From Methanotrichaceae archaeon (GTDB lineage Archaea > Halobacteriota > Methanosarcinia > Methanotrichales > Methanotrichaceae): a stretch of 64,000 bases of DNA. Below the pieces are notes generated by a model that did no database searches, was not told the DNA's origin, and worked only from the letters and a program-made list of their open reading frames with translations. This document shows, in pieces, positions 13,015-55,219 of this stretch. Each line of letters begins with the position of its first letter. Position 1 is the first letter of the stretch. The stretch covers positions 1 through 64,000 of the forward strand of contig CAWDLW010000016.1 in NCBI GenBank assembly GCA_963803145.1, in the 5' to 3' direction. Position numbers and translations under genes: made by a program.

Positions 13015-13109
13015 TGCGTCGACCGGGATTCGAACCCGGGTTGTAGGCTTGCTTCGCAGAACTCTTCTCGCATGGAAGGCCCAAGTCATAGCCACTAGAC
13101 CATCGACGC
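13015..13109 (-). tRNA. tRNA-Gly(TCC) with 23-nt intron (13050-13072) at canonical 37/38
   Basis: GCGTCGATGGTCTAGTGGCTATGACTTGGGCCT-TCC-A[TGCGAGAAGAGTTCTGCGAAGCA]AGCCTACAACCCGGGTTCGAATCCCGGTCGACGCA; CTTC/GAAG 4-bp helix between two 3-nt bulges (BHB); 72 nt mature. Confidence 0.93.
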
Positions 13110-45377: not shown

Positions 45378-46276
45378 CCTTTCTTTTATTCAGAAATATT
45401 TATTGGACTTATTAAATTACATTTTTCCGCAAGCGATCAGGAATTAAGCGAAGAGTATAGAACTTTAGAGGTGTATCTAAGCCAGGAGTATCCCGTCATC
45501 AAGACCCAGAGAATATACTTTTCGATCATCTTGCTCTTTCCTGATGATAAGTTATGGTGATGTGTGCAGCTTAGCCAAGCGATGAAAGCACACCCCATTT
45601 CAGATAGATGAAATTACGTTTAAAAACAAATTATATCGTATATAAAATATTTAAATTAAATGGGCTGAAAATAACGAATTGGTGCAGTATCATATTATAT
45701 TAATGATGGCATCCCAGTTCACGCAAGCGGTCTACGCTTTTGAAAATATTTATTAGATAAGTATATATACAATATATCGGAAGCATACTACCTTCTCAAT
45801 CCGCGGATCATAGAAGGCTCTCGTAGCCATCCTCCTTTGGCACCATATGATCTGCACGACGGATATCAAGGTGAGCAAATATGACATTCAAGGTTCCCGC
45901 AGAGATAGCAAAGGCATCCATAGCCTCTGGATGCGCAAAATGCACAATGAACTGGCAAAAGCTATTGATCTTGGGCTTTCTTGCAGGGGCATACATCGCC
46001 TTTGGAGCATTGTTGAGCGAAATTGTGGCTGGCGGCCTATCTAATGGAACGATCACAGCTGCAAACGGAGATATCTGGAAGATAGCTCTCCCCACAGGCC
46101 TTGTTAAGTTCGCGACTGGCGCGGTCTTCCCGGTAGGACTTATGCTTGTAGTGATCGGAGGCGCAGAGCTGTTCACTGGAAACTGCCTCTTTGCACCAAT
46201 AAGCGTTCTAAATAGGGAAGCATCGTTTAAGGGATTGGTGACGAACTGGGCGATAGTTTATATTGCCAATATTATA

Positions 46277-47414
46277 GAGGATTCCTATAAACCTACCCCC
46301 TGCTTTAGCATCGAAAGTGTTAAATACAGCAAATAGTATTTATTGTTATGGATTCTTTTACTACTTGGGTATTGAAAGGTCTAAATGCAAAGCAAGAGGA
46401 GTCTAAATTAGCTCAAGTATCTGGATTGATCAATTGGGTTCCCTTTCGTCCTCTTCTGGAAGGGATGTATACTAATAAGACCGAGAAGGGCGGAAGGCCC
46501 AACTGTGATGTTATTCTAATGTTCAGGATCCTGATTCTCCAGCAGTGGTATGGCCTGAGCGATCTGGCTGTTGAACGGCAAATGGCTGATCGCATATCAT
46601 TTATGGCATTTCTTGGTTTTCCTGATCAGTTCCCTGATTCCAGAACTATATGGTCATTCAAAGAACGAATGGCGGAGACAGGAACAGATAGGCTTGTTTG
46701 GGCTGAACTTCAAAGACAGTTGGATGCAAAAGGATTGAAGATCAGACGCGGAATTGTTCAGGATGCTACCTTTATAGAAGCAGATCCAGGATCATCGGAG
46801 TCAAAGAAACCACGTGGCGATGAGGCTAAGACACGTCGCAGCAAGGATGGCACATGGGCTAAGAAAGGCAATGAAACTCACTTCGGATATAAGTTACATC
46901 AAATAACTGATATCGATTACAGCCTAATACGTGATATAGAGACCTCGACTGCATCACTGCATGACAGTCAGGTTGATCTCTCTATCCCTGGCGTGCCAGT
47001 TTTCAGAGATAGAGGATATTTCGGTGTGAAGGCCAAAGGTATTGATTTTACAATGAAGCGCAGGACTACTGATAAACCTCTTTCTGATCTTGATAAAGAA
47101 CGCAATCAGTTGATCAGTATCCTCAGATCGCCTGGCGAAAGGCCCCATGCTGTAATCAAGAGGGTTTTCGAGGCTGGAAGAGTGCTTGTTACATCAGTCA
47201 GAAGAGTGCATGTGAAAATGATAGTTACCGCTTTCGCTTTTAACTTGTATCAGCTTTGTACTCTTAAAAAGGCAAATGTCATTTAGGGATAGCGGATGCT
47301 ATCGAGAATTAACTGAAAAAAAACAGGTTAGACCAAGAATAGCGAACATCGTAAGGCAAATCTAGAGTCGATTTAAAAAAACCGCCCTTAGGATACAAGT
47401 AAATAGGAATCCTC
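46277..47414 (+). mobile_element. IS5-family insertion sequence, 1138 bp
   Basis: IRs GAGGATTCCTATAAAC / GTAAATAGGAATCCTC; 4-bp TSD TATA (46273-76, 47415-18). Confidence 0.95.
46348..47286 (+). CDS. IS5-family transposase
   Basis: 'GGRP','QQWYGLSD','PDSRTIW','VQDATF','FGYKLH','DRGY','RSPGERP'. Confidence 0.95.
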   Translation: MDSFTTWVLKGLNAKQEESKLAQVSGLINWVPFRPLLEGMYTNKTEKGGRPNCDVILMFRILILQQWYGLSDLAVERQMADRISFMAFLGFPDQFPDSRTIWSFKERMAETGTDRLVWAELQRQLDAKGLKIRRGIVQDATFIEADPGSSESKKPRGDEAKTRRSKDGTWAKKGNETHFGYKLHQITDIDYSLIRDIETSTASLHDSQVDLSIPGVPVFRDRGYFGVKAKGIDFTMKRRTTDKPLSDLDKERNQLISILRSPGERPHAVIKRVFEAGRVLVTSVRRVHVKMIVTAFAFNLYQLCTLKKANVI

Positions 47415-48014
47415 TATAGGCTCTATATTTGTAGCCTATTTCCTTGCATACAAATGCGGCTTTTTCAACGCTATGCCATGGGCAGGATGGGCTGCAACAG
47501 TTGCGAATACGAAATGCGGTCTCGACTTCACTACGGCTTTTTTGCGAGGCATCGGCTGTAACTGGCTTGTTTGCCTTTCAATATGGCTGGCGATAAGCGC
47601 AGAAGATATCATCAGCAAGATACTGGCCATCTGGTTCCCAATAATGGCCTTTGTGACCATTGGCTTTGAGCATAGCGTAGCTAATATGTTCTTCATCCCA
47701 TTGGGGCTATTCGTGGCCAATGATCCTGCCATAGCAACCAATCTTGCTATATCTAAGGTTGCCACGGCGAATCTTATTGGAGCGACCGGTTGGTATAATT
47801 TCATTGTTACTAACCTGATACCCGTCACCCTTGGAAACATTGTAGGAGCAGTGCTCTTTGTGGCGATATTATACTGGTATGTGTATGCACATGGATCGCT
47901 CTGCACCCCTACGCAGACAAAGATAAAGGCGCCAAAACAATAAAGATAAAAGAGCTAAAGATAAAATGGCTTAGTCATATAGCCATTCGTTTTTTAGGTA
48001 GTTTACCATAATTA

Positions 48015-49097
48015 TAGTTAATCCACGTAATTTTTACCTCATAGATACCCTTAAATAATTAATATACGATATAGCCGTTCATGGGCAGGAAACCTGTAAT
48101 TGTAAGACATATCTCGAAGGTAGAATTAGATCAATTGTATAAAGATGAGAGAAACATAAGAATTAAAGAACGGCTACTAGCGATAATACATTTATACGAA
48201 GGAAAGAATGTATATATAGTAGCTGATATTCTTAAACGAAGTGAAAAGACAATAAAGAATTGGCTAAGCGATTGGAACAAACAAGGATATGATGGATTGA
48301 TACCACAGAATAGAAACGGCAAAGAACCAATGATATCTTTTGATGAATGGGATAAAATTATCGAAGAGATTGAGGACAAAGGAATGACTATAAAAGAGGT
48401 AATAAAATATGCAAAAGACACAAGAGGCGTAGAATATTCGTATAAAGGTGGTTGGAAGATTTTAAGATCAATAAAGAAAGTCAAATATGGTAAACCATAT
48501 ATTAGAAATAATAAGAGGCCTGTTAATGCAGAAAGTTTTCTAAAAAAAGGATAGATTCAGTAATAACAACAGTCAAAGAACCTATTATTGGATTCCTTGA
48601 TGAAAGCTCTTTGCAACAGCGACCTAATACACGCAGGGTTTTAAACACCCATATGCTAAATTATCAACCTGGAAAAGTTAGGTCTAGAACTGTTTTTGGG
48701 TTCATTGCATTGAATGGAAATGATGAAGTTATGGTCTCTCACTCATCCAAGAAAGAAGATTTAATGATCTTCGCCCAAAAATTGAGAAGTAACAATATTA
48801 TGAGACCAATATGTATTGTCCTAGATAATGCTAGAATACATCTAGCTAAGAAGTTTAGGGCATTAGCCCACGAACTTGATATCCATTTAATATATAACGT
48901 GCCATATTCCCCTGATTTAAATCCTATAGAGTTCGGTTGGAAGGATTTTAAAAGAGAGATATCAAAATATACTGATTTTGATGAAGCTATTGAGGATGCC
49001 CAAGATTGCGCTTTACAAATATTTTATTCCAATAAAGATGGATACTCTAAGTCTTGGATAAAGCAGTTTATAAGGTAAAAAGTTGGGAGAATGACTA
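48015..49097 (+). mobile_element. IS630-family insertion sequence
   Basis: TA duplicated at both ends; IRs TAGTTAATCCACGTAATTTTTACC / GGTAAAAAGTTGGGAGAATGACTA; very AT-rich. Confidence 0.88.
48081..49078 (+). CDS. IS630 transposase, two ORFs joined by a probable -1 frameshift at A7G (48542-48549)
   Basis: ORF1 HTH domain ending 'FLKKG*'; the -1 frame continues 'KKRIDS...GFLDES...VLDNARIH...PYSPDLNPIEFGW'. Confidence 0.88.
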
Positions 49098-49387
49098 TAA
49101 TTTGATAAATCTAGTCTCCTCCTTCGCTTCCTTCTTGGCTTCGCATAAGCCCATTTATTTCATGCAAAGCCATGAAGTGCCAGGTGGTTATTCCTGGATC
49201 TGCTTAGCCGCTTCTTGAAGCATTGTCATTCTTGAGCGCATGTAAGCGGTTGCATGGTTTATATGTTTATCAAAATGGAAGAGTAGACGACCTGAAAGTA
49301 CAGGCCGTAAAAAGCTTGGATTCCTCCGGGATCAAACTTTACCATCTTGAACATAAGCCAATCTTGGCCAACTTTATAGCGCTCTAA

Positions 49388-49520
49388 TTCGGGAGTGCCC
49401 GCGAGTCGCTTCGCTCCCGCGCTAGCTGTTTACGGGGCTGTCGCTCACACGCCGCGACGGGCTAACGCCCTCCGGGACGGTTCACATGAGTAGTGAACGA
49501 CAGGTTAGTTGACTACCTGC
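49388..49520. other. GC-rich multi-hairpin non-coding segment
   Basis: GCGAGTCGCTTCGCTCCCGC, TCGC..GCGA, GGGCTAACGCCC, GTTCAC..GTGAAC, CAGGT..ACCTG within AT-rich surroundings. Confidence 0.55.
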
Positions 49521-49578
49521 CTTATTTACTGTAATTTCTGATTTCCATTATAATCAGAAGTTTCAAGCTTTAGGCGCT

Positions 49579-49605
49579 TGCGTGCGAGGGTATGAGAACT
49601 CTGCA
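49579..49605. repeat. att-like site, left copy
   Basis: TGCGTGCGAGGG-TATGAGA-ACTCTGCA. Confidence 0.55.
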
Positions 49606-49626
49606 GATAATCGCCCCGTTAGTTTA

Positions 49627-50316
49627 CTATTTCTTCTTCGCTATACGTGCCTTGAATTCTTCGTACCTATCTGCAAGATCATAGATGTACTCAATAATAG
49701 CATAGACAAATGACTGAAGATCTTCGGCATCCTGCCGTGAAATTGATATCTCGCCAGGGTGCGCCGCTAGGTTGCGAAACGCATGTAGTTGCTGGCTCCA
49801 ATCATAGAGCCGATCGTCAATGATTCCTTTATCTTTGAGCATCTTGATCCCCTCCCCGAGCAGGATCCTCCTCTTAGGTGGGGCTTCTGCTTCAGCCGTT
49901 CCTGAGGGCAGTTTAGGATCAAGGAAATCTCGGCATACTGCTTCAAGCGCTCGGCCAAACATGACACATGCCGCGATGTTTGCACTTGCTTGCAATGATC
50001 GATCGGCTTCGGAAAGCGATTCTGTAACCGATCGCGGAATCCTATTGCTTACGAATGTTTTCGGTGGTTTTGGATAAACCCGAACAACAACGTTGGACCA
50101 CTCATCTTCTTCGTTATCAATGCCTGCAACGCTGATTTGGTGAGTTTGACCTACAAGTAACTCTCCGCATCGTGGGCATTGTCCGATAATCAATTTCTTC
50201 CCTGCAGGCCACCCACTTTCCTCATCAAAATCACTTATTGAAGCACTTCCCTTTTCAATAGCGGCAACTTTGGCTTCGCAAAAAGGGCAGTCGATTATGA
50301 ATGTCTGCTGTGCCAT
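49627..50316 (-). CDS. DUF4145 (HEPN-like) protein with N-terminal Zn ribbon
   Basis: CPFC...CPRC; 'AACVMFGRALE'; R-x4-H motif 'RNLAAH'. Confidence 0.88.
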   Translation of the reverse strand: MAQQTFIIDCPFCEAKVAAIEKGSASISDFDEESGWPAGKKLIIGQCPRCGELLVGQTHQISVAGIDNEEDEWSNVVVRVYPKPPKTFVSNRIPRSVTESLSEADRSLQASANIAACVMFGRALEAVCRDFLDPKLPSGTAEAEAPPKRRILLGEGIKMLKDKGIIDDRLYDWSQQLHAFRNLAAHPGEISISRQDAEDLQSFVYAIIEYIYDLADRYEEFKARIAKKK

Positions 50317-51102
50317 GCATCATCCCGATTGTCGTTGTAGTCCTTCTCGCACATAGATGCTTTCCTTGGTGACACATCAATGGTATGGCAGCCATACAGA
50401 GAGGAACTGCAAAAGCCGATTCATCGGAGAGGGTTATGGTATAATCCCAATATCAGCTATAAGGTAGGAAAGCACCCCCCCCAAAAAGGAGATCATCGAT
50501 ATTAATATAGTTTGCTTGAATGTGATAGTTTCAGAACCAAAGCATCCTGCGATCGAGTGGTCAAAACGATCACTTGATTCTTTTAGACTGTTGGCATATT
50601 ATATATCAAAATATATCTCGTCATGGTCATATATTTTTTTTGTTAAATGGGCTATTCTACACATTATGGGAATACGCAGAGTCTAGCGCACACCATCATG
50701 ATGGAGAGGGCAGGAAAGTATCTTATCCGACCACCTACCTAAAGTAGGCCCGCTACAGATAGCGTTTTTAGGGTGAATTTACGGTTATCGATTAGTAGGG
50801 AAAAAAGGCCCAATTTTAAATATATGACATTTGAAAAATATTGTCCTGGAGGTGTCTCTCTGCACCTAAACAGTAGGATGATATTATCCAAATTAACACT
50901 AATAATATCATGCTACTAAATGACGGCAAAGGATTAAATTTTCAATAGGATTATGATAAAGATCCTGAGTTTTGCATCTGAGCCAAATTAACAGTATGTA
51001 AAAAAGCCGTAAAATGAGTTTAAAGGCCCAAAATGGGCCGCGAGCATACAACTACATAGTGATACACACGTTTTTATAGTACCAGTCTATTAAGCGCGCA
51101 TT

Positions 51103-51570
51103 ATGGAAGAAGTTGAGCTAAAAATTTTAAAGGAAATTCATAAGATATATCAATTAGCGCGTGTAGGTGCAAGCTCCGATAAAATTGCAAGTAATTTAGG
51201 AATGACAAACGATGATGTGTGCGATTTTTTAGACGTGCTAGAAGATCAAGGATATGTAAAGGTAAGCAGGTATATTGGTGGTGCATATGGCGCGTTCCTT
51301 ACTCACACCGGGCGATTGTTGCTAACGCATCCGGAATACATGTTTAACAAAGGATATGTTGATGCAAGTGATGTTCTAAAAGTGCTTGAAAAAGCGGTAA
51401 ACGATTCTGAAAATATACCTCTGCGGGAAAAACCATCACTAATCGGAAAACTCACGGATCTAAGCCACGACCCATATATACAAAGCATAAGTTCCGGGTT
51501 AGTAATAGAAGCCGTAAAAAATACTTTGGTATTTAATATCGGCCATATAGTTGGCGTAATGACCGCATAA
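51103..51570 (+). CDS. Winged-HTH domain hypothetical protein
   Basis: 'ILKEI...IASNLGM...VCDFLDVLEDQGYVK...LTHTG' plus a helical C-terminus. Confidence 0.75.
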   Translation: MEEVELKILKEIHKIYQLARVGASSDKIASNLGMTNDDVCDFLDVLEDQGYVKVSRYIGGAYGAFLTHTGRLLLTHPEYMFNKGYVDASDVLKVLEKAVNDSENIPLREKPSLIGKLTDLSHDPYIQSISSGLVIEAVKNTLVFNIGHIVGVMTA

Positions 51571-51681
51571 AATGCCCTAGGATCGAGGATTAAACAGGCT
51601 GACGGCTAATATTACTGGTAACCTTCAGGCTGCACTATTCAAGACTTATTCTATTGATGCTGGTTCTGTATTTGCCTTTAC

Positions 51682-51708
51682 ATGCGGGGTATGAGACCCC
51701 CGCACGCA
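51682..51708. repeat. att-like site, right copy
   Basis: ATGCGGGG-TATGAGA-CCCCCGCACGCA. Confidence 0.55.
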
Positions 51709-51756
51709 TAACTGAACACAAAGCTGAAATAGACAATTGAATAATTTCTGGAAACA

Positions 51757-52620
51757 ATGGTGCTAGATCCAGAGCAATTGAAAACCGCTGCCGAAATTGC
51801 TGGAATTGGATCAGGATTAATAGCGGGAGCTGAATTTTTACCAACCGTTGTAGGGTGTGCAAAGAAATGGATATCTGCTAAATTCCATGGTCATCCCCAA
51901 AAAGCAATAGATGTCGCTCTAAGCAATTTTAATGACTTCAGTGGGCAGGTCAACATATGTCTTAATGGAATGCAACAAATTGAAGGCTTTGAAGAGAAAA
52001 AGGAACAGGCACTTGCTGATCCAGATTATACAAGTCTCTTCCAAGAGGCAGTCTTGGGGGCAGCACGCACCAATTCTGTACAAACGCATAAAATTCTAGC
52101 ACGTTTGGTTACTGAGAGGCTTGCTGCAGAACCCGACTCCTTGCGTACATTAGCTTCTCACATGGCTTGCGATGCAGTACTGCAACTCTCACCCAAACAT
52201 TTACGATTCCTTGGTTTTATGGCTATCCTTTATGCCATGGACACTCCTGATTATGTAAAAGGCGTAAGTGGAGAAACTGGGGTTGACTCAGATCAAAAGA
52301 CTTTCGAAAAGGGCTTAAGTTGGCTTTCGGATGAACTTTCTCCTCTGTTACCAATAGGAGAGATGACCCACGCTGATTATTCTCATTTAGAGGCCGTTTC
52401 TTGTATTACGAATGGTGCGTACATAACCGAATTATTACATTTATTGAAATGGAAATTCTCAACAAAACAAATAAACGAGAGCTGGATCGAACAAAATCCA
52501 ATTTATAAAGTTCTATGCAAATACTGGAATAGTAGTGCGTCCTTAACCCCTGCTGGTACACTAATAGGTATGTATGTTAGGGATATTATTCCAAGAGAAC
52601 CGGCAAAATGGACCTTTTAG
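51757..52620 (+). CDS. LPO_1073/Vpar_1526-like (Abi-alpha-like) protein
   Basis: 'LADPDY...AAR...ILARLVTER','AVLQLSPKHL','YSHLEAVSC','LTPAGTLIG' match the recalled family pattern. Confidence 0.6.
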   Translation: MVLDPEQLKTAAEIAGIGSGLIAGAEFLPTVVGCAKKWISAKFHGHPQKAIDVALSNFNDFSGQVNICLNGMQQIEGFEEKKEQALADPDYTSLFQEAVLGAARTNSVQTHKILARLVTERLAAEPDSLRTLASHMACDAVLQLSPKHLRFLGFMAILYAMDTPDYVKGVSGETGVDSDQKTFEKGLSWLSDELSPLLPIGEMTHADYSHLEAVSCITNGAYITELLHLLKWKFSTKQINESWIEQNPIYKVLCKYWNSSASLTPAGTLIGMYVRDIIPREPAKWTF

Positions 52621-53103
52621 AAATAGGTGCGTAAGGCCGTAGGCCCGATCGTGAAGTAAGATTTGAGCCATAGTTCCCGCTGGGCGAAACGAATTACCTT
52701 GTCATGCATCAATTGCAGAATACCCTCGCTTATAGCATATCTATCCAACTCTAATGGAGATGGCTGAACTTGCCTATCGAAGTGTGTATAACTTGTCAAT
52801 CGAATCAGCCGATTTTGGCATTCGCAAAGCCATGGCTCAATTTTATAAACATCTTTTCAACCTACAACTCCATGCTTTTACGCTCCAAATTTTGTTTCCC
52901 AATACTTGCTATGCCGCGACCATGTTAACCAATATCAAGCGAGCTGGCTCATCCATGCCTATAGTTTATGGAATGAAATGCTAACTGGAACACTTATTGT
53001 CTCTATTTTTCGGATCCACTCAAGTTGCATAAGTTACCACATGTAAGTTGAGAGTCGAGTATGTGCAACCTACCATCCGATTCCATGGCATTTTCTCATC
53101 TAA

Positions 53104-54663
53104 CCTTAACTCCGCGAATATGGGGAATAAATTGGGCTTTTAAGTGGTTATTTCGGCTCTAGATTCTTATTTGAGCGAAAGCTTAATTAACCTTTATTCC
53201 CCATATGGTGAATATGGAGACTTGGGCTAAAGAGTGGTTAGAGGATCAAAGAAAGAAAGGAGTTAAATGCCTTGAAATAAAACAGCATGGCGCTAAGCAT
53301 TATGTTTACCATTCCACGACACATTGGGATAAAACTCAAAATAAAGCGATAAAGACCTCAAAATATATTGGTAAACTTGATCAAGAGCGCGGTTTAATAA
53401 GGTCCCATGAAGAAGATAGCCAAAATGTAAAGGTTGAAAAGTCAACAAAGGTTAGAAGCATTACCGAGTACGGCAATGCCCTTTTGCTTCACGAAGCCAT
53501 GAAAGACATAAAACCGCTATTGATGGAAGGTTTTCCTAACAATTGGTCGGAAATTTATTCGCTTTCTATGTTGAGAGTTATGGGAAATGTCCCTTTAAAA
53601 AGAGCTGAAAGCGCATGGCAAAAGCTCTATAATGTGGAATCCATTGAACCTAATCTCAAGTCTCAACATCTCTCTAAAGTAATGCAAGATATTGGCGGCA
53701 ACCGCAAAGGTCAGAGCATATTATTTAAGGGCCTTCTCGATCAAAGTGAACAGCTTGTATACGATTTAAGTTATATATTTTCGCGTTCTGTAAGCATACG
53801 TCAAGCAGAAAAGGGCTATAATAAAGATAAAATTCAATTACCTCAAATTAACATAGTGCTACTTTGTAACGCTGAAACTGGGCTGCCGACTATGATAAGA
53901 TCCCTTCCAGGCAGTGTCAAAGACATAGCAACCCTGAGAAAATCCCTTTCTGAATTTGATATCCAAAACAAGATGCTCATATTGGATAGAGGTTTCTCCT
54001 CAGAAGATGTCTTTTCGGATTTAAATGAACTTGATATCTCATACCTTATTCCGGCGAAAAGAAATAGCCATTATTATGATACGCGCATTCACCTAAATAG
54101 TCACTTTCGCTACCGTAAGCGGCTAATTCGATGTGGTAGCAGAATGTGCAAAGACAAGTATCTTTATTTATTTGAAGATCAAGAACTCTTGCTTGAAGAG
54201 CGTAATACCCTTTACGATAAACTTGATAAAGGTGAGATTGATAGAAATCACTTTGATAAAAATTTTAAAAAAGCTGGAAGGATTTTAATTCTGTCAAATC
54301 GAAAGATGTCTGAGCAGGAAGCTTATGAATTCTACAAGAAAAGGGACGTTGTCGAGAAATTATTCGATACCTATAAATCAACTTTGTATGCAGATAGATT
54401 ATACCTACATAACGATGAAAGCGTTTTCGGACATGTATTTATTGGATTTTTATCTCTCTACGCATATTGTAAAATCGAATCTCTATTAAAGAAAGCCAAT
54501 CTAAATAGAACTATGACACCAATGGATTTACTATTTGAGTTTAGCAAAATATATCATATCGACTTTGGTGAAGAGGACGCTATTATGGAAATTCCTAAGA
54601 AAGTTCGTGATCTAGATGTAAGGCTTAAACTAAATCTATTCCCCACGTAATGCGGAGTTAAGG
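53104..54663 (+). mobile_element. IS1634-family insertion sequence, 1560 bp
   Basis: IRs CCTTAACTCCGC...TGGGGAATA at both ends; 6-bp TSD ATCTAA (53098-103, 54664-69). Confidence 0.92.
53205..54650 (+). CDS. IS1634-family transposase
   Basis: 'VYDLS','GYNKD...PQIN','PGSVKD','LDRGF','YKKRDVVEKLFDTYK'. Confidence 0.9.
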   Translation: MVNMETWAKEWLEDQRKKGVKCLEIKQHGAKHYVYHSTTHWDKTQNKAIKTSKYIGKLDQERGLIRSHEEDSQNVKVEKSTKVRSITEYGNALLLHEAMKDIKPLLMEGFPNNWSEIYSLSMLRVMGNVPLKRAESAWQKLYNVESIEPNLKSQHLSKVMQDIGGNRKGQSILFKGLLDQSEQLVYDLSYIFSRSVSIRQAEKGYNKDKIQLPQINIVLLCNAETGLPTMIRSLPGSVKDIATLRKSLSEFDIQNKMLILDRGFSSEDVFSDLNELDISYLIPAKRNSHYYDTRIHLNSHFRYRKRLIRCGSRMCKDKYLYLFEDQELLLEERNTLYDKLDKGEIDRNHFDKNFKKAGRILILSNRKMSEQEAYEFYKKRDVVEKLFDTYKSTLYADRLYLHNDESVFGHVFIGFLSLYAYCKIESLLKKANLNRTMTPMDLLFEFSKIYHIDFGEEDAIMEIPKKVRDLDVRLKLNLFPT

Positions 54664-54740
54664 ATCTAAATCAAAAATGCCTTAGAACTCTTTTAAGATT
54701 AGAGCGATGAAGATAGCTAAAAGAGAGCTTAATGAGATTT

Positions 54741-55126
54741 CTATGCAAACAATATATTCTTTGATCTTTCTTTTCTATCATCCGATGATTCTTTTTCGTA
54801 CTCAACTATGGGCTTGATTAAGCCCTGGTTGGACTCTATGATTTTTGAGATCTCGTTATTTTGTAGACTGGCCGCTGTTTCACATTGCTTTAGCGCAAAA
54901 TACTCTGGCATCGCGTTATTCAGCTCCATGAGCTTCTTTACTATTGGGTTCTGTTTGTTTAGCTTATAATTGGCCTTGCCTGGTAGTTTCAATAAGCTCC
55001 AAGGCTTCCAGCTTGGGCATATATCTTAAGAAGGGTAGTCTTGCTCAGGCATGCGCCTTTTTCTATCTCAGCCCTTGAGTAATCAAAAGATTCGTTATCC
55101 CTCAAGAAATCCAATACTTTTACCAG
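54741..55126 (-). pseudogene. Decayed archaeal wHTH regulator
   Basis: Three frames join as 'LVKVLDFLRDNESFDYSRAEIEKGACLSKTTLLKI / MPKLEALELIETTRQ / KANYKLNKQNPIVKKLMEL'; no start codon before the tRNA T-tract. Confidence 0.65.
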
Positions 55127-55145: not shown

Positions 55146-55219
55146 AGCCTCGGGTGGGATTCGAACCCACGGCCTCGTCCTTACCAAGGACGCGCTATAC
55201 CGAGCTAAGCTATCGAGGC
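55146..55219 (-). tRNA. tRNA-Thr(GGT)
   Basis: GCCTCGATAGCTTAGCTCGGTATAGCGCGTCCTT-GGT-AAGGACGAGGCCGTGGGTTCGAATCCCACCCGAGGCT. Confidence 0.95.

Follow-up and report, generated by a model that had tools for sequence, protein, structure and literature searches.

Dispersed intergenic repeats that carry regulatory signals, such as the REP/BIME, ERIC and Correia elements, are familiar from bacterial genomes. Elements of the IS200/IS605 type end in like hairpins on one strand at both ends, have no inverted terminal repeats and produce no target duplication. Two reports on Acinetobacter plasmids describe dif (pdif) modules, in which cargo with no recombinase of its own is bounded by XerC/XerD sites (PMC6449649, PMC13141974); a dif site is described elsewhere as two 11-nt arms around a 6-nt spacer (PMC8371274). 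Integrons have been reported in Archaea by a study whose main text names no Methanothrix or Methanosarcinales genome (PMC9668308). Here we analyze a pair of hairpin-like sites and the genes between them in a 64,000-nt stretch of a Methanotrichaceae archaeon genome (GCA_963803145.1, contig CAWDLW010000016.1, positions 1–64,000; ‘the window’) and compare the locus with these systems.

The original prediction noted that two sites in the window share the core TATGAGA, and read them as the attL and attR ends of one two-gene cassette moved in trans. Our analysis favors another account. We consider it fairly likely that the sites are paralogous copies of a hairpin, hp2, carried by two families of dispersed modules, and that they bracket a foreign gene together with a resident set of regulator, operator and gene. 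The two sites probably mark a patchwork region, not the two ends of one inserted cassette. What we observe is family membership, copy numbers, polarity, neighborhoods and synteny breaks; from these we infer binding partners, recombination and regulation.

The two sites and their repeat families

Both TATGAGA sites have the coordinates and letters given in the original prediction (Table 1) and are spaced 2099 bp apart. A repeat search of 2.7 kb recovered GGGTATGAGA as a 10-nt direct repeat (family D7) and the outer arms as a 13-nt inverted pair with 92% identity (I11). Each is ordinary alone, because the same 2.7 kb holds 32 families of direct repeats and 56 inverted pairs that are comparable in size. 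The window has exactly two copies of GGGTATGAGA, and its own genome (4.13 Mb; hereafter G000, its contigs being given C numbers unless stated otherwise) has 14. The likeness of the two sites goes beyond chance because both fall within repeat families; comparing 49300–52000 with G000 by blastn revealed three such non-coding families. Repeats of this size are common enough locally to make a chance resemblance conceivable, but the right site belongs to a repeat, R, recognized at E=1.2e-26 and the left to a module recognized at E ~1e-13. This membership rules chance out, and we give a chance resemblance practically no weight.

R begins with TTACTGGTAAC, has a head palindrome of the form TTAC-NN-GTAA and ends in hp2, an 8-7-8 palindrome whose consensus, GTGCGGGG-GATGAGA-TTCTCGCAC, is a 24-nt lineage-specific hairpin motif. 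A profile built from 14 R copies gives 21 matches in G000 at E<1e-3 (19 distinct sequences), and in nhmmer the window copy spans profile positions 2–97. The profile covers the right inner arm, the core and the outer arm without a break, so the right site is a single family-typical hairpin. In G002, one of two other genomes of the same genus (the second is G001), an R copy at locus L028 finishes with almost the same whole hairpin, CATGCGGGGG...CCCCCGCACGTAT. Folded as single-stranded DNA, the right site forms a good hairpin alone (−8.3 kcal/mol, z=−3.2). Beyond G000, both G002 (3 matches) and G016 carry R, one G001 locus gave weaker profile matches, and G005 and G012 have the hairpin part alone; by blastn R occurs in 5 of 31 genomes, G000 counted.

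The left site lies in a different module, which we aligned over 14 copies. Its order is an 11-8-11 palindrome (hp1), the box AAGCTTTA, ~10 nt and a hairpin of the hp2 kind. The 76-nt stretch 49530–49605 matches copies on C5 and C30 at 82% and 78% identity, and this homology runs through 49605, taking in the left inner arm. The C30 copy shows double compensatory changes in its hairpin (ATGCAGGGG/TCTTCTGCAT), and in a C8 copy the hairpin has wholly different paired arms, CGAAAA/TTTTCG (pairs judged by eye). Since these hairpins pair with different letters, they are self-contained and not hybrids. The window copy folds to −2.6 kcal/mol (z=−0.06), no better than shuffled sequences. Judged by its sequence, the left site is a decayed hp2-type hairpin in the tail of the left module. 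Inverted arms had been proposed at each site; on folding they hold up at the right site but not at the left. As for the further flanking pair TTTCAAGCTTT/AAAGCTGAAA, its left half belongs to the conserved left module and its right half, AAAGCTGAAA, lies in sequence unconserved among R copies.

The attL/attR proposal amounts to the following: a hairpin TGCGTGCGRGGG-TATGAGA-CCCYCGCACGCA standing 3' of hp1 was interrupted when a circular segment (2.1 kb, or 0.75 and 1.35 kb successively) inserted by conservative site-specific recombination, with crossover at the end of the TATGAGA loop and the enzyme acting in trans. The analysis does not support it: family homology continues unbroken through both cores, the whole right hairpin recurs in G002, and the left inner arm is common to the left modules on C5 and C30. 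The joined empty site, TGCGTGCGRGGG-N7-CCCYCGCACGCA, was absent from all 105 family genomes (G000 included) at up to 2 mismatches and from the window at up to 3, and an exact 33-nt scan of metagenome contigs for the left site gave 0 matches. Several coincidences nevertheless fit such an insertion. The outer arms pair at 11 of 12 positions and carry a 3-bp TGC/GCA extension absent from other R copies, the inner arms TGCGGGG/CTCTGCA give 7 pairs of which 2 are wobble (by eye), and both sites have the loop T of GGGTATGAGA, which just 2 of 22 distinct R copies possess. Several other units have left hairpins that pair poorly, as would be expected of hybrids, and the polarity of the recurrent units described below is array-like. 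The far edge of the GC-richer segment that holds one of the two genes, which encodes a HEPN-like protein, is also marked by an orphan 3' arm of hp2, an exact TTCTCGCAC; 0.36 such matches are expected at ≤1 mismatch in the 2.6-kb region. However, no copy of the loop is found at the 50343/50344 junction, complementarity of the outer arms is expected because all four arms share common descent, and the coincidences were picked out post hoc, at p ~0.01–0.1 each. We consider an insertion of this kind distinctly improbable.

An attractive variant in which the HEPN gene is a 746-bp insertion that split the left hairpin between its loop (49597) and the orphan arm (50344) was not adopted; homology to C5 and C30 continues to 49605, and none was found beyond the 9-mer. 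By its letters the orphan arm may be the remnant of an older junction. It is preceded by TGTAGTCC, which recalls TGTAG loop variants on C12 and at a segment border in G018.

Polar units, a short recombinase and possible regulation

The palindrome hp1, of which the window holds a single copy, lies 30–45 nt to the left of the left site. At ≤1 mismatch it occurs in 21 of 105 family genomes, usually in 1–3 copies each, and in the three genomes of the genus in 13 (G000), 8 and 2 copies, mostly with the spacer TCCATTAT; reversed-pattern controls gave 0 in every genome. The spacer is 8 nt long in all copies, about 10 of which share one identical spacer. Left and right flank types of hp1 are found in mixed combinations.

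R and hp1 keep close company. Within 6 kb of each other we observed 13 R–hp1 pairs, against 1.26 expected from random placement; in 12 of the 13 the two members share a strand (binomial p=0.0017), and the order is hp1 then R in 9. These hp1–R units bracket unrelated cargo at 9 loci, over spacings of 0.26–5 kb. The cargo differs in each and includes HEAT-repeat and signal-peptide proteins, a DnaJ-like gene and a 400-nt GC-rich non-coding stretch. At the R-then-hp1 loci the parts form a composite junction in the order R, hp2, a TATA-like box TTCATAGAGATATCTT, hp1, AAGCTTTA and a hairpin. Of the cassette proposal, then, the idea of site-bounded modules survives in part, as recurrent polar modules with unrelated cargo, but with sites and borders other than those it assigned.

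Two side observations concern these units. The ~400-nt GC-rich stretch between hp1 and R is present in three copies (C18:43340–43790, which is L002 2340–2790; C2:11369–11820; C11:27316–27711), looks structured and has a TATA-like box on its 5' side. Rfam gave no match at E≤0.1, and its sequence makes it a candidate for a non-coding RNA. Small open reading frames (ORFs) of a second family, 84–87 aa long and of the form MNPEA(I/V)LAVLPD...KEIA..., stand 65 nt from R or adjoin hp2/hp1 (G000 C8:82177, C15:404047 and C18:58621–58875; G002 L054 2810–3057), divergent from secretory genes.

The whole stretch from left module to R could be one non-autonomous transposable unit that acquires cargo and relies on a transposase encoded elsewhere, either a cargo-carrying miniature inverted-repeat transposable element (MITE) or an IS200/IS605- or IS91-like unit with end hairpins on one strand. 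A 584-bp unit does occur twice with 95% identity (C2:11334–11916 and C18:43305–43886) and no likeness in the 3-kb flanks on either side, a minimal unit of 380 bp exists on C8, and hp2-type hairpins stand in direct orientation at both ends, as in IS200/IS605. But this is the single duplicated unit seen, and by eye the pair has neither terminal inverted repeats nor a target duplication. R and hp1 are also found singly, and some pairs have the opposite order, R then hp1. In G000 three identical IS200 copies end in CCCCACAGCTTGCTGTGGGG-type hairpins unrelated to hp2, and none of 17 TnpB-type matches adjoins R or hp1. We rejected a MITE on the further ground that the left end, ATGTAATTTCTG..., is not the inverse of the right end, ...CTCGCAC, and an IS200/IS605 derivative on the ground that the end hairpins do not match the resident Y1-transposase or TnpB elements. 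A transposable unit of any of these forms appears very unlikely to us.

The original prediction found no recombinase in the window, and none was seen among the ORFs scanned (~30.7–63 kb). Its suggestion that one acts in trans fares better in part: a tyrosine-recombinase family is present in the lineage, but the palindrome linked to it is hp1 and not the TATGAGA site. G000 has 13 tyrosine-recombinase matches. One of them, on C12, is a gene of ~207 aa directly preceded by an hp1-type palindrome, and a remnant on C15 is arranged likewise. Relatives of this mini-recombinase at E≤1e-20 occur in 24 of the 61 family genomes searched. Its orthologues with 78–87% identity have an hp1-type palindrome directly upstream in 6 of 6 loci, from six genomes and five genera (G038, G017, G018, G039, G005 and G002), each with 0–2 arm mismatches and a different 8-nt spacer, so that the arrangement is found in seven genomes in all, G000 counted. 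Upstream of relatives with 49–52% identity the palindrome was found at 0 of 5 loci.

By profile, the mini-recombinase scores 134.8 bits against the XerA equivalog NF040815 (cut-off 220) and covers only model positions 94–263, the N-terminal domain being absent; the nearest solved chain is 4a8e, at residues 103–279. Its length is comparable to that of FimB/FimE-type invertases. Integron-integrase models score 74.2 bits against a cut-off of 265 (TIGR02249) and 56.1 against 435 (NF011946). Three orthologues (L059, L061 and L062, in G017, G039 and G005) contain a single in-frame TAG close to the 5' end of the match. Their ORFs begin at a downstream Met (MEPEKF...), and the true start is probably the second Met.

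These associations suggest how the parts might work. The palindrome hp1 would be the binding site of a XerA-like recombinase reduced to its catalytic domain, and copies of hp1 with the identical spacer TCCATTAT, together with the repeats around them, would be places where island content is exchanged, by site-specific or homologous recombination. R would be an upstream regulatory block serving the gene that starts 50–135 nt downstream, and is likely the operator of the adjoining winged-helix protein, its palindromic head TTACTGGTAA and hp2 hairpin being placed just 5' of a TATA-like box.

A more ambitious proposal is that Methanotrichaceae carry an undescribed cassette-junction system. In it, the XerA-derived, catalytic-domain-only recombinase would act on an 11-8-11 palindrome that has multiplied in the genus with the fixed spacer TCCATTAT and the R/hp2 module. 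At composite junctions, accessory genes (the bacterial-type HEPN gene included) would have been slotted in, swapped and given a promoter, and crossover would also take place at a second point, the hp2 loop, as first proposed. We put this forward tentatively and doubt that it holds.

The regulatory part of the picture could also be the whole of it. R usually lies 50–135 nt 5' of a gene and looks regulatory by position: a same-strand ORF starts 51–133 nt 3' of R at 15 of 21 matches, or 12 of 18 with duplicated segments collapsed, in a count of mechanically called ORFs made without a random control. The downstream ORFs mostly encode signal-peptide proteins of several unrelated families, and TATA-like boxes are visible by eye 3' of hp2 in several copies. 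If no genes moved at all, hp1 and hp2 would be operators of dimeric DNA-binding proteins at archaeal promoters, recurring through expansion of a regulon and paralogous loci. Besides the position of R upstream of genes, this would explain the winged-helix genes that adjoin R, arms that stay invariant while the spacer varies freely, as in operators, and the palindrome that directly precedes the recombinase start codon (hp1'). In G018 hp1' is internal to a duplicated segment of 3.8 kb and separates the recombinase gene from two secretory genes; this interior position fits an operator better than an att site, and hp1' as the end of a recombinase-bearing element is unsupported there. Unlike the binding sites of a regulon, however, the modules recur as sharp-edged copies with 78–95% identity beside unrelated genes, about 10 hp1 copies have an identical 8-nt spacer, synteny breaks at hp1 and hp1 flank types are mixed. 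Regulation with no gene movement seems rather unlikely to us.

Cargo, island and what weighs against the reading

The original prediction took the interior to be exactly two genes forming one module. The two genes differ in composition and in relatives. The HEPN-like protein matches PF13643 (E=1.8e-12, 47.6 bits against a cut-off of 23.1) and has the Rx4-6H motif as RNLAAH. It has 873 homologues; the best 120 are 56–72% identical, and the few named ones among them are bacterial. It also matches phage family phrog_1305, and against a defence-system library it gave only a weak, sub-threshold match. Its gene has a GC content of 0.47–0.53, against 0.35–0.41 for the neighbors. The gene is probably a horizontal acquisition of bacterial type, as its composition and homologues suggest.

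The second gene encodes a putative winged-helix regulator with only 7 relatives found, all apparently of this lineage. Pfam and NCBIfam gave no match, and its predicted model has the order H-H-H-E-E with a pLDDT of 79–92 over residues 1–70. The top Foldseek matches are all regulators of the MarR/DtxR/MntR type, but weak (E≥1.6e-3, TM ~0.4). All 3 winged-helix paralogues of G000 stand 41–148 nt from an R; those on C18 and C23 do so at 66 and 148 nt and in opposite orientation. This gene therefore travels with R in G000, not with the HEPN gene. A winged-helix remnant in a Methanotrichaceae metagenome-assembled genome (L043) also adjoins R, and four short loci of the family on metagenome contigs have none. 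Neither G001 nor G002 holds DNA relatives of the cargo genes. The interior, on the evidence of its parts, is a mosaic of a bacterial-type HEPN gene and a resident trio made up of the winged-helix gene, R and the downstream gene.

Other observations join the outer-arm pairing, the shared loop T and the placement of the orphan arm in weighing against paralogous hairpins around a mosaic, as do the uncontrolled ORF distances and the interior position of hp1' in G018. The recombinase copies in G000 look defective: the C12 gene has no in-frame start codon, its only ATG falling after the first catalytic Arg, and the C15 copy is a remnant. R is absent at 5 of 6 winged-helix homologue loci outside G000 (L042, L069–L072; several on short or cut contigs). 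RNAalifold and single-sequence folds found no structure shared among R copies beyond hp2. Variation in hp2 is mostly one-sided (G-U to G-C), with stem mismatches in several copies, so selection at the level of structure is not shown.

The surrounding features are collected in Table 1.

Table 1. Features of the variable island and its surroundings, in window positions
Feature	Position	Strand	Basis or remark
Left tip of ~490-bp dispersed non-coding repeat	47995–48009	+	cut by IS630-family element; resumes 49102
IS630-family insertion sequence, split transposase (HTH_23 + DDE_3)	48010–49101	+	Pfam; not part of module; interrupts 490-bp repeat
~490-bp repeat body	49102–49532	+	GC-rich core ~49362–49493; own-genome blastn
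hp1, 11-8-11 palindrome AATTTCTGATT-TCCATTAT-AATCAGAAGTT	49533–49562	+	22 genome loci; hairpin z=−3.4
Left-module tail	49563–49605	+	AAGCTTTA box and degenerate hp2 copy; fold no better than shuffles
Left site	TGCGTGCGAGGG 49579–49590, TATGAGA 49591–49597, ACTCTGCA 49598–49605		letters checked
Zn-ribbon and DUF4145 (HEPN-like) protein, 229 aa	49627–50316	−	PF13643; RNLAAH motif (Rx4H)
Orphan hp2 3' arm TTCTCGCAC, exact	50344–50352	+	27 nt upstream of HEPN start codon
M, non-coding	50600–50802	+	beside small regulator-like genes; C18 27264–27356, C8 82676–82582
Winged-helix protein, 155 aa, putative transcription regulator	51103–51570	+	lineage-specific; predicted fold
R, 96-nt dispersed repeat	51611–51706	+	sharp-edged alignment; nhmmer E=1.2e-26; starts with palindrome TTACTGGTAA, ends with hp2
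Right site	ATGCGGGG 51682–51689, TATGAGA 51690–51696, CCCCCGCACGCA 51697–51708		letters checked
LPO_1073/Vpar_1526-family protein, 287 aa	51757–52620	+	NF045477, 116 bits against 45; phrog_19542
T, first part; conserved right-end stretch of such islands	52839–53103	+	continues 54664–54698, 55061–55120
DDE_Tnp_1 insertion sequence, inserted into T	53104–54663	+	Pfam; absent at matching G002 place
tRNA-Thr(GGT), island right border	55146–55219	−	ARAGORN; Rfam

The variable island spans ~47995–55120 and adjoins a tRNA-Thr gene, of which no partial copy was found at the island's other end on this contig. Its left part is the ~490-bp repeat, which is the conserved left neighbor of hp1 in five copies. 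The stretch 47992–48012 matches C17 239233–239253 and C25 24299–24314, right before their copies of 49102–49571. The 287-aa gene begins 51 nt downstream of R, the usual position of a gene relative to R. The first part of T is 83% identical to stretches on G002:C4 and G002:C1, which have the same orientation and an hp1 upstream of them. In G002 (L054) the sequence corresponding to 52839–53103 runs directly into that of 54664–54698.

On a larger scale, G000:C8 and G002:C4 are colinear on either side of a variable segment, with hp1 as one edge. An island of like build in G002 reads repeat, hp1, two genes, hp1', recombinase gene, gene and T; it has its T end in common with the window island and no cargo in common. 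The orthologous place in G000 (C12:138017–139275) holds unrelated DNA and offers no clean empty site. Going by these shared stretches, the ~490-bp repeat, the modules, M and T are recurring parts of variable islands in G000 and its congeners.

Three later insertion sequences lie in or beside the island, of the IS630, DDE_Tnp_1 and IS5-like kinds. The IS630-family element has more than 40 copies in the genome, in two subfamilies (~100% and ~78% identity) with sharp ends, which is a large recent expansion. The first 100 bases of the DDE_Tnp_1 element are 97–98% identical to several G002 copies, against 85–88% for syntenic DNA, which hints at recent transfer or spread. Left of the island, a formate/nitrite transporter gene (45881–46336 and 47473–47943) is split by the IS5-like element (46348–47286; DUF772 and DDE_Tnp_1).

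The ~490-bp repeat has at least 15 copies in G000 and dozens in G001 and G002, often adjoining hp1, and no Rfam match; it is a candidate RNA gene or mobile-element remnant. A search of 49200–52000 at E≤10 likewise placed no Rfam family on hp1, on R or on the left tail, and six related loci gave nothing of relevance (E≤0.1). At the gathering threshold, Rfam recognized only three tRNAs in the whole window. A tRNA-Gly(TCC) at 13015–13109 is 95 nt long, a length that could accommodate an intron.

Comparison with described systems and meaning

The hp1–R units resemble pdif modules, as far as these are set out in the reports cited above, in being short modules (toxin- or defence-type cargo included) with recurring recombinase-type sites, no recombinase gene and an enzyme supplied in trans, and in having inverted 11-nt arms around a short spacer. 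They differ in that each unit has one hp1 and one R and not two Xer sites, and in that the hp1 spacer is 8 nt. The enzyme linked to hp1 is a catalytic-domain-only relative of XerA below the XerA cut-off, and exchange here is putative.

With integrons, in the outline given by the archaeal report, the shared features are co-oriented units, a double-strand palindrome adjoining a tyrosine-recombinase gene, hairpin-forming cassette ends and foreign cargo. In contrast to integrons, cargo genes here face both ways. The recombinase scores far below the integrase cut-off (74 bits against 265), and at 207 aa it is too short to hold the IntI-specific extra domain. Inspection of R and the left module by eye showed no RYYYAAC/GTTRRRY attC cores. 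We rejected membership in either the integron or the Xer/dif class, given no IntI-type enzyme, no XerA/C/D equivalog, an 8-nt spacer and one palindrome per unit. Group II introns, C/D-box RNAs and attC sites were also set aside, their defining motifs being absent by eye and Rfam finding nothing.

REP/BIME, ERIC and Correia elements resemble R in being sharp-edged, ~100 nt long, capable of forming hairpins, intergenic and often just 5' of genes. R, however, has no terminal inverted repeats, is polar relative to hp1 and to genes, does not extend beyond one archaeal genus or family and co-occurs with a recombinase-linked palindrome. The difference from IS200/IS605 lies in the unrelated end hairpins of the Y1-transposase elements of G000 and in the distance of the 17 TnpB-type matches from R and hp1. 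The closest counterparts in working principle, to the extent that the cited reports describe them, would be the Acinetobacter dif modules and integrons, archaeal ones included. A search of the literature on Methanothrix intergenic repeats and hairpins and on archaeal XerA/dif mobility, supplements not covered, found no description of these elements.

Methane production from acetate is dominated by Methanothrix-type methanogens, yet how they gain and control accessory genes is little understood. The window shows that paralogous hairpin repeats are enough to produce pairs of sites with the look of hybrid att sites. If the elements are only regulatory repeats, they would be lineage-specific portable upstream elements associated with secreted proteins and with small winged-helix genes. 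Should hp1 and the hairpin prove to be recombination sites, they would provide a new archaeal route of gene capture, bacterial genes included, served by a minimal recombinase. A cassette-junction system, if true, would be an archaeal functional counterpart of integrons and dif modules, built from different parts.

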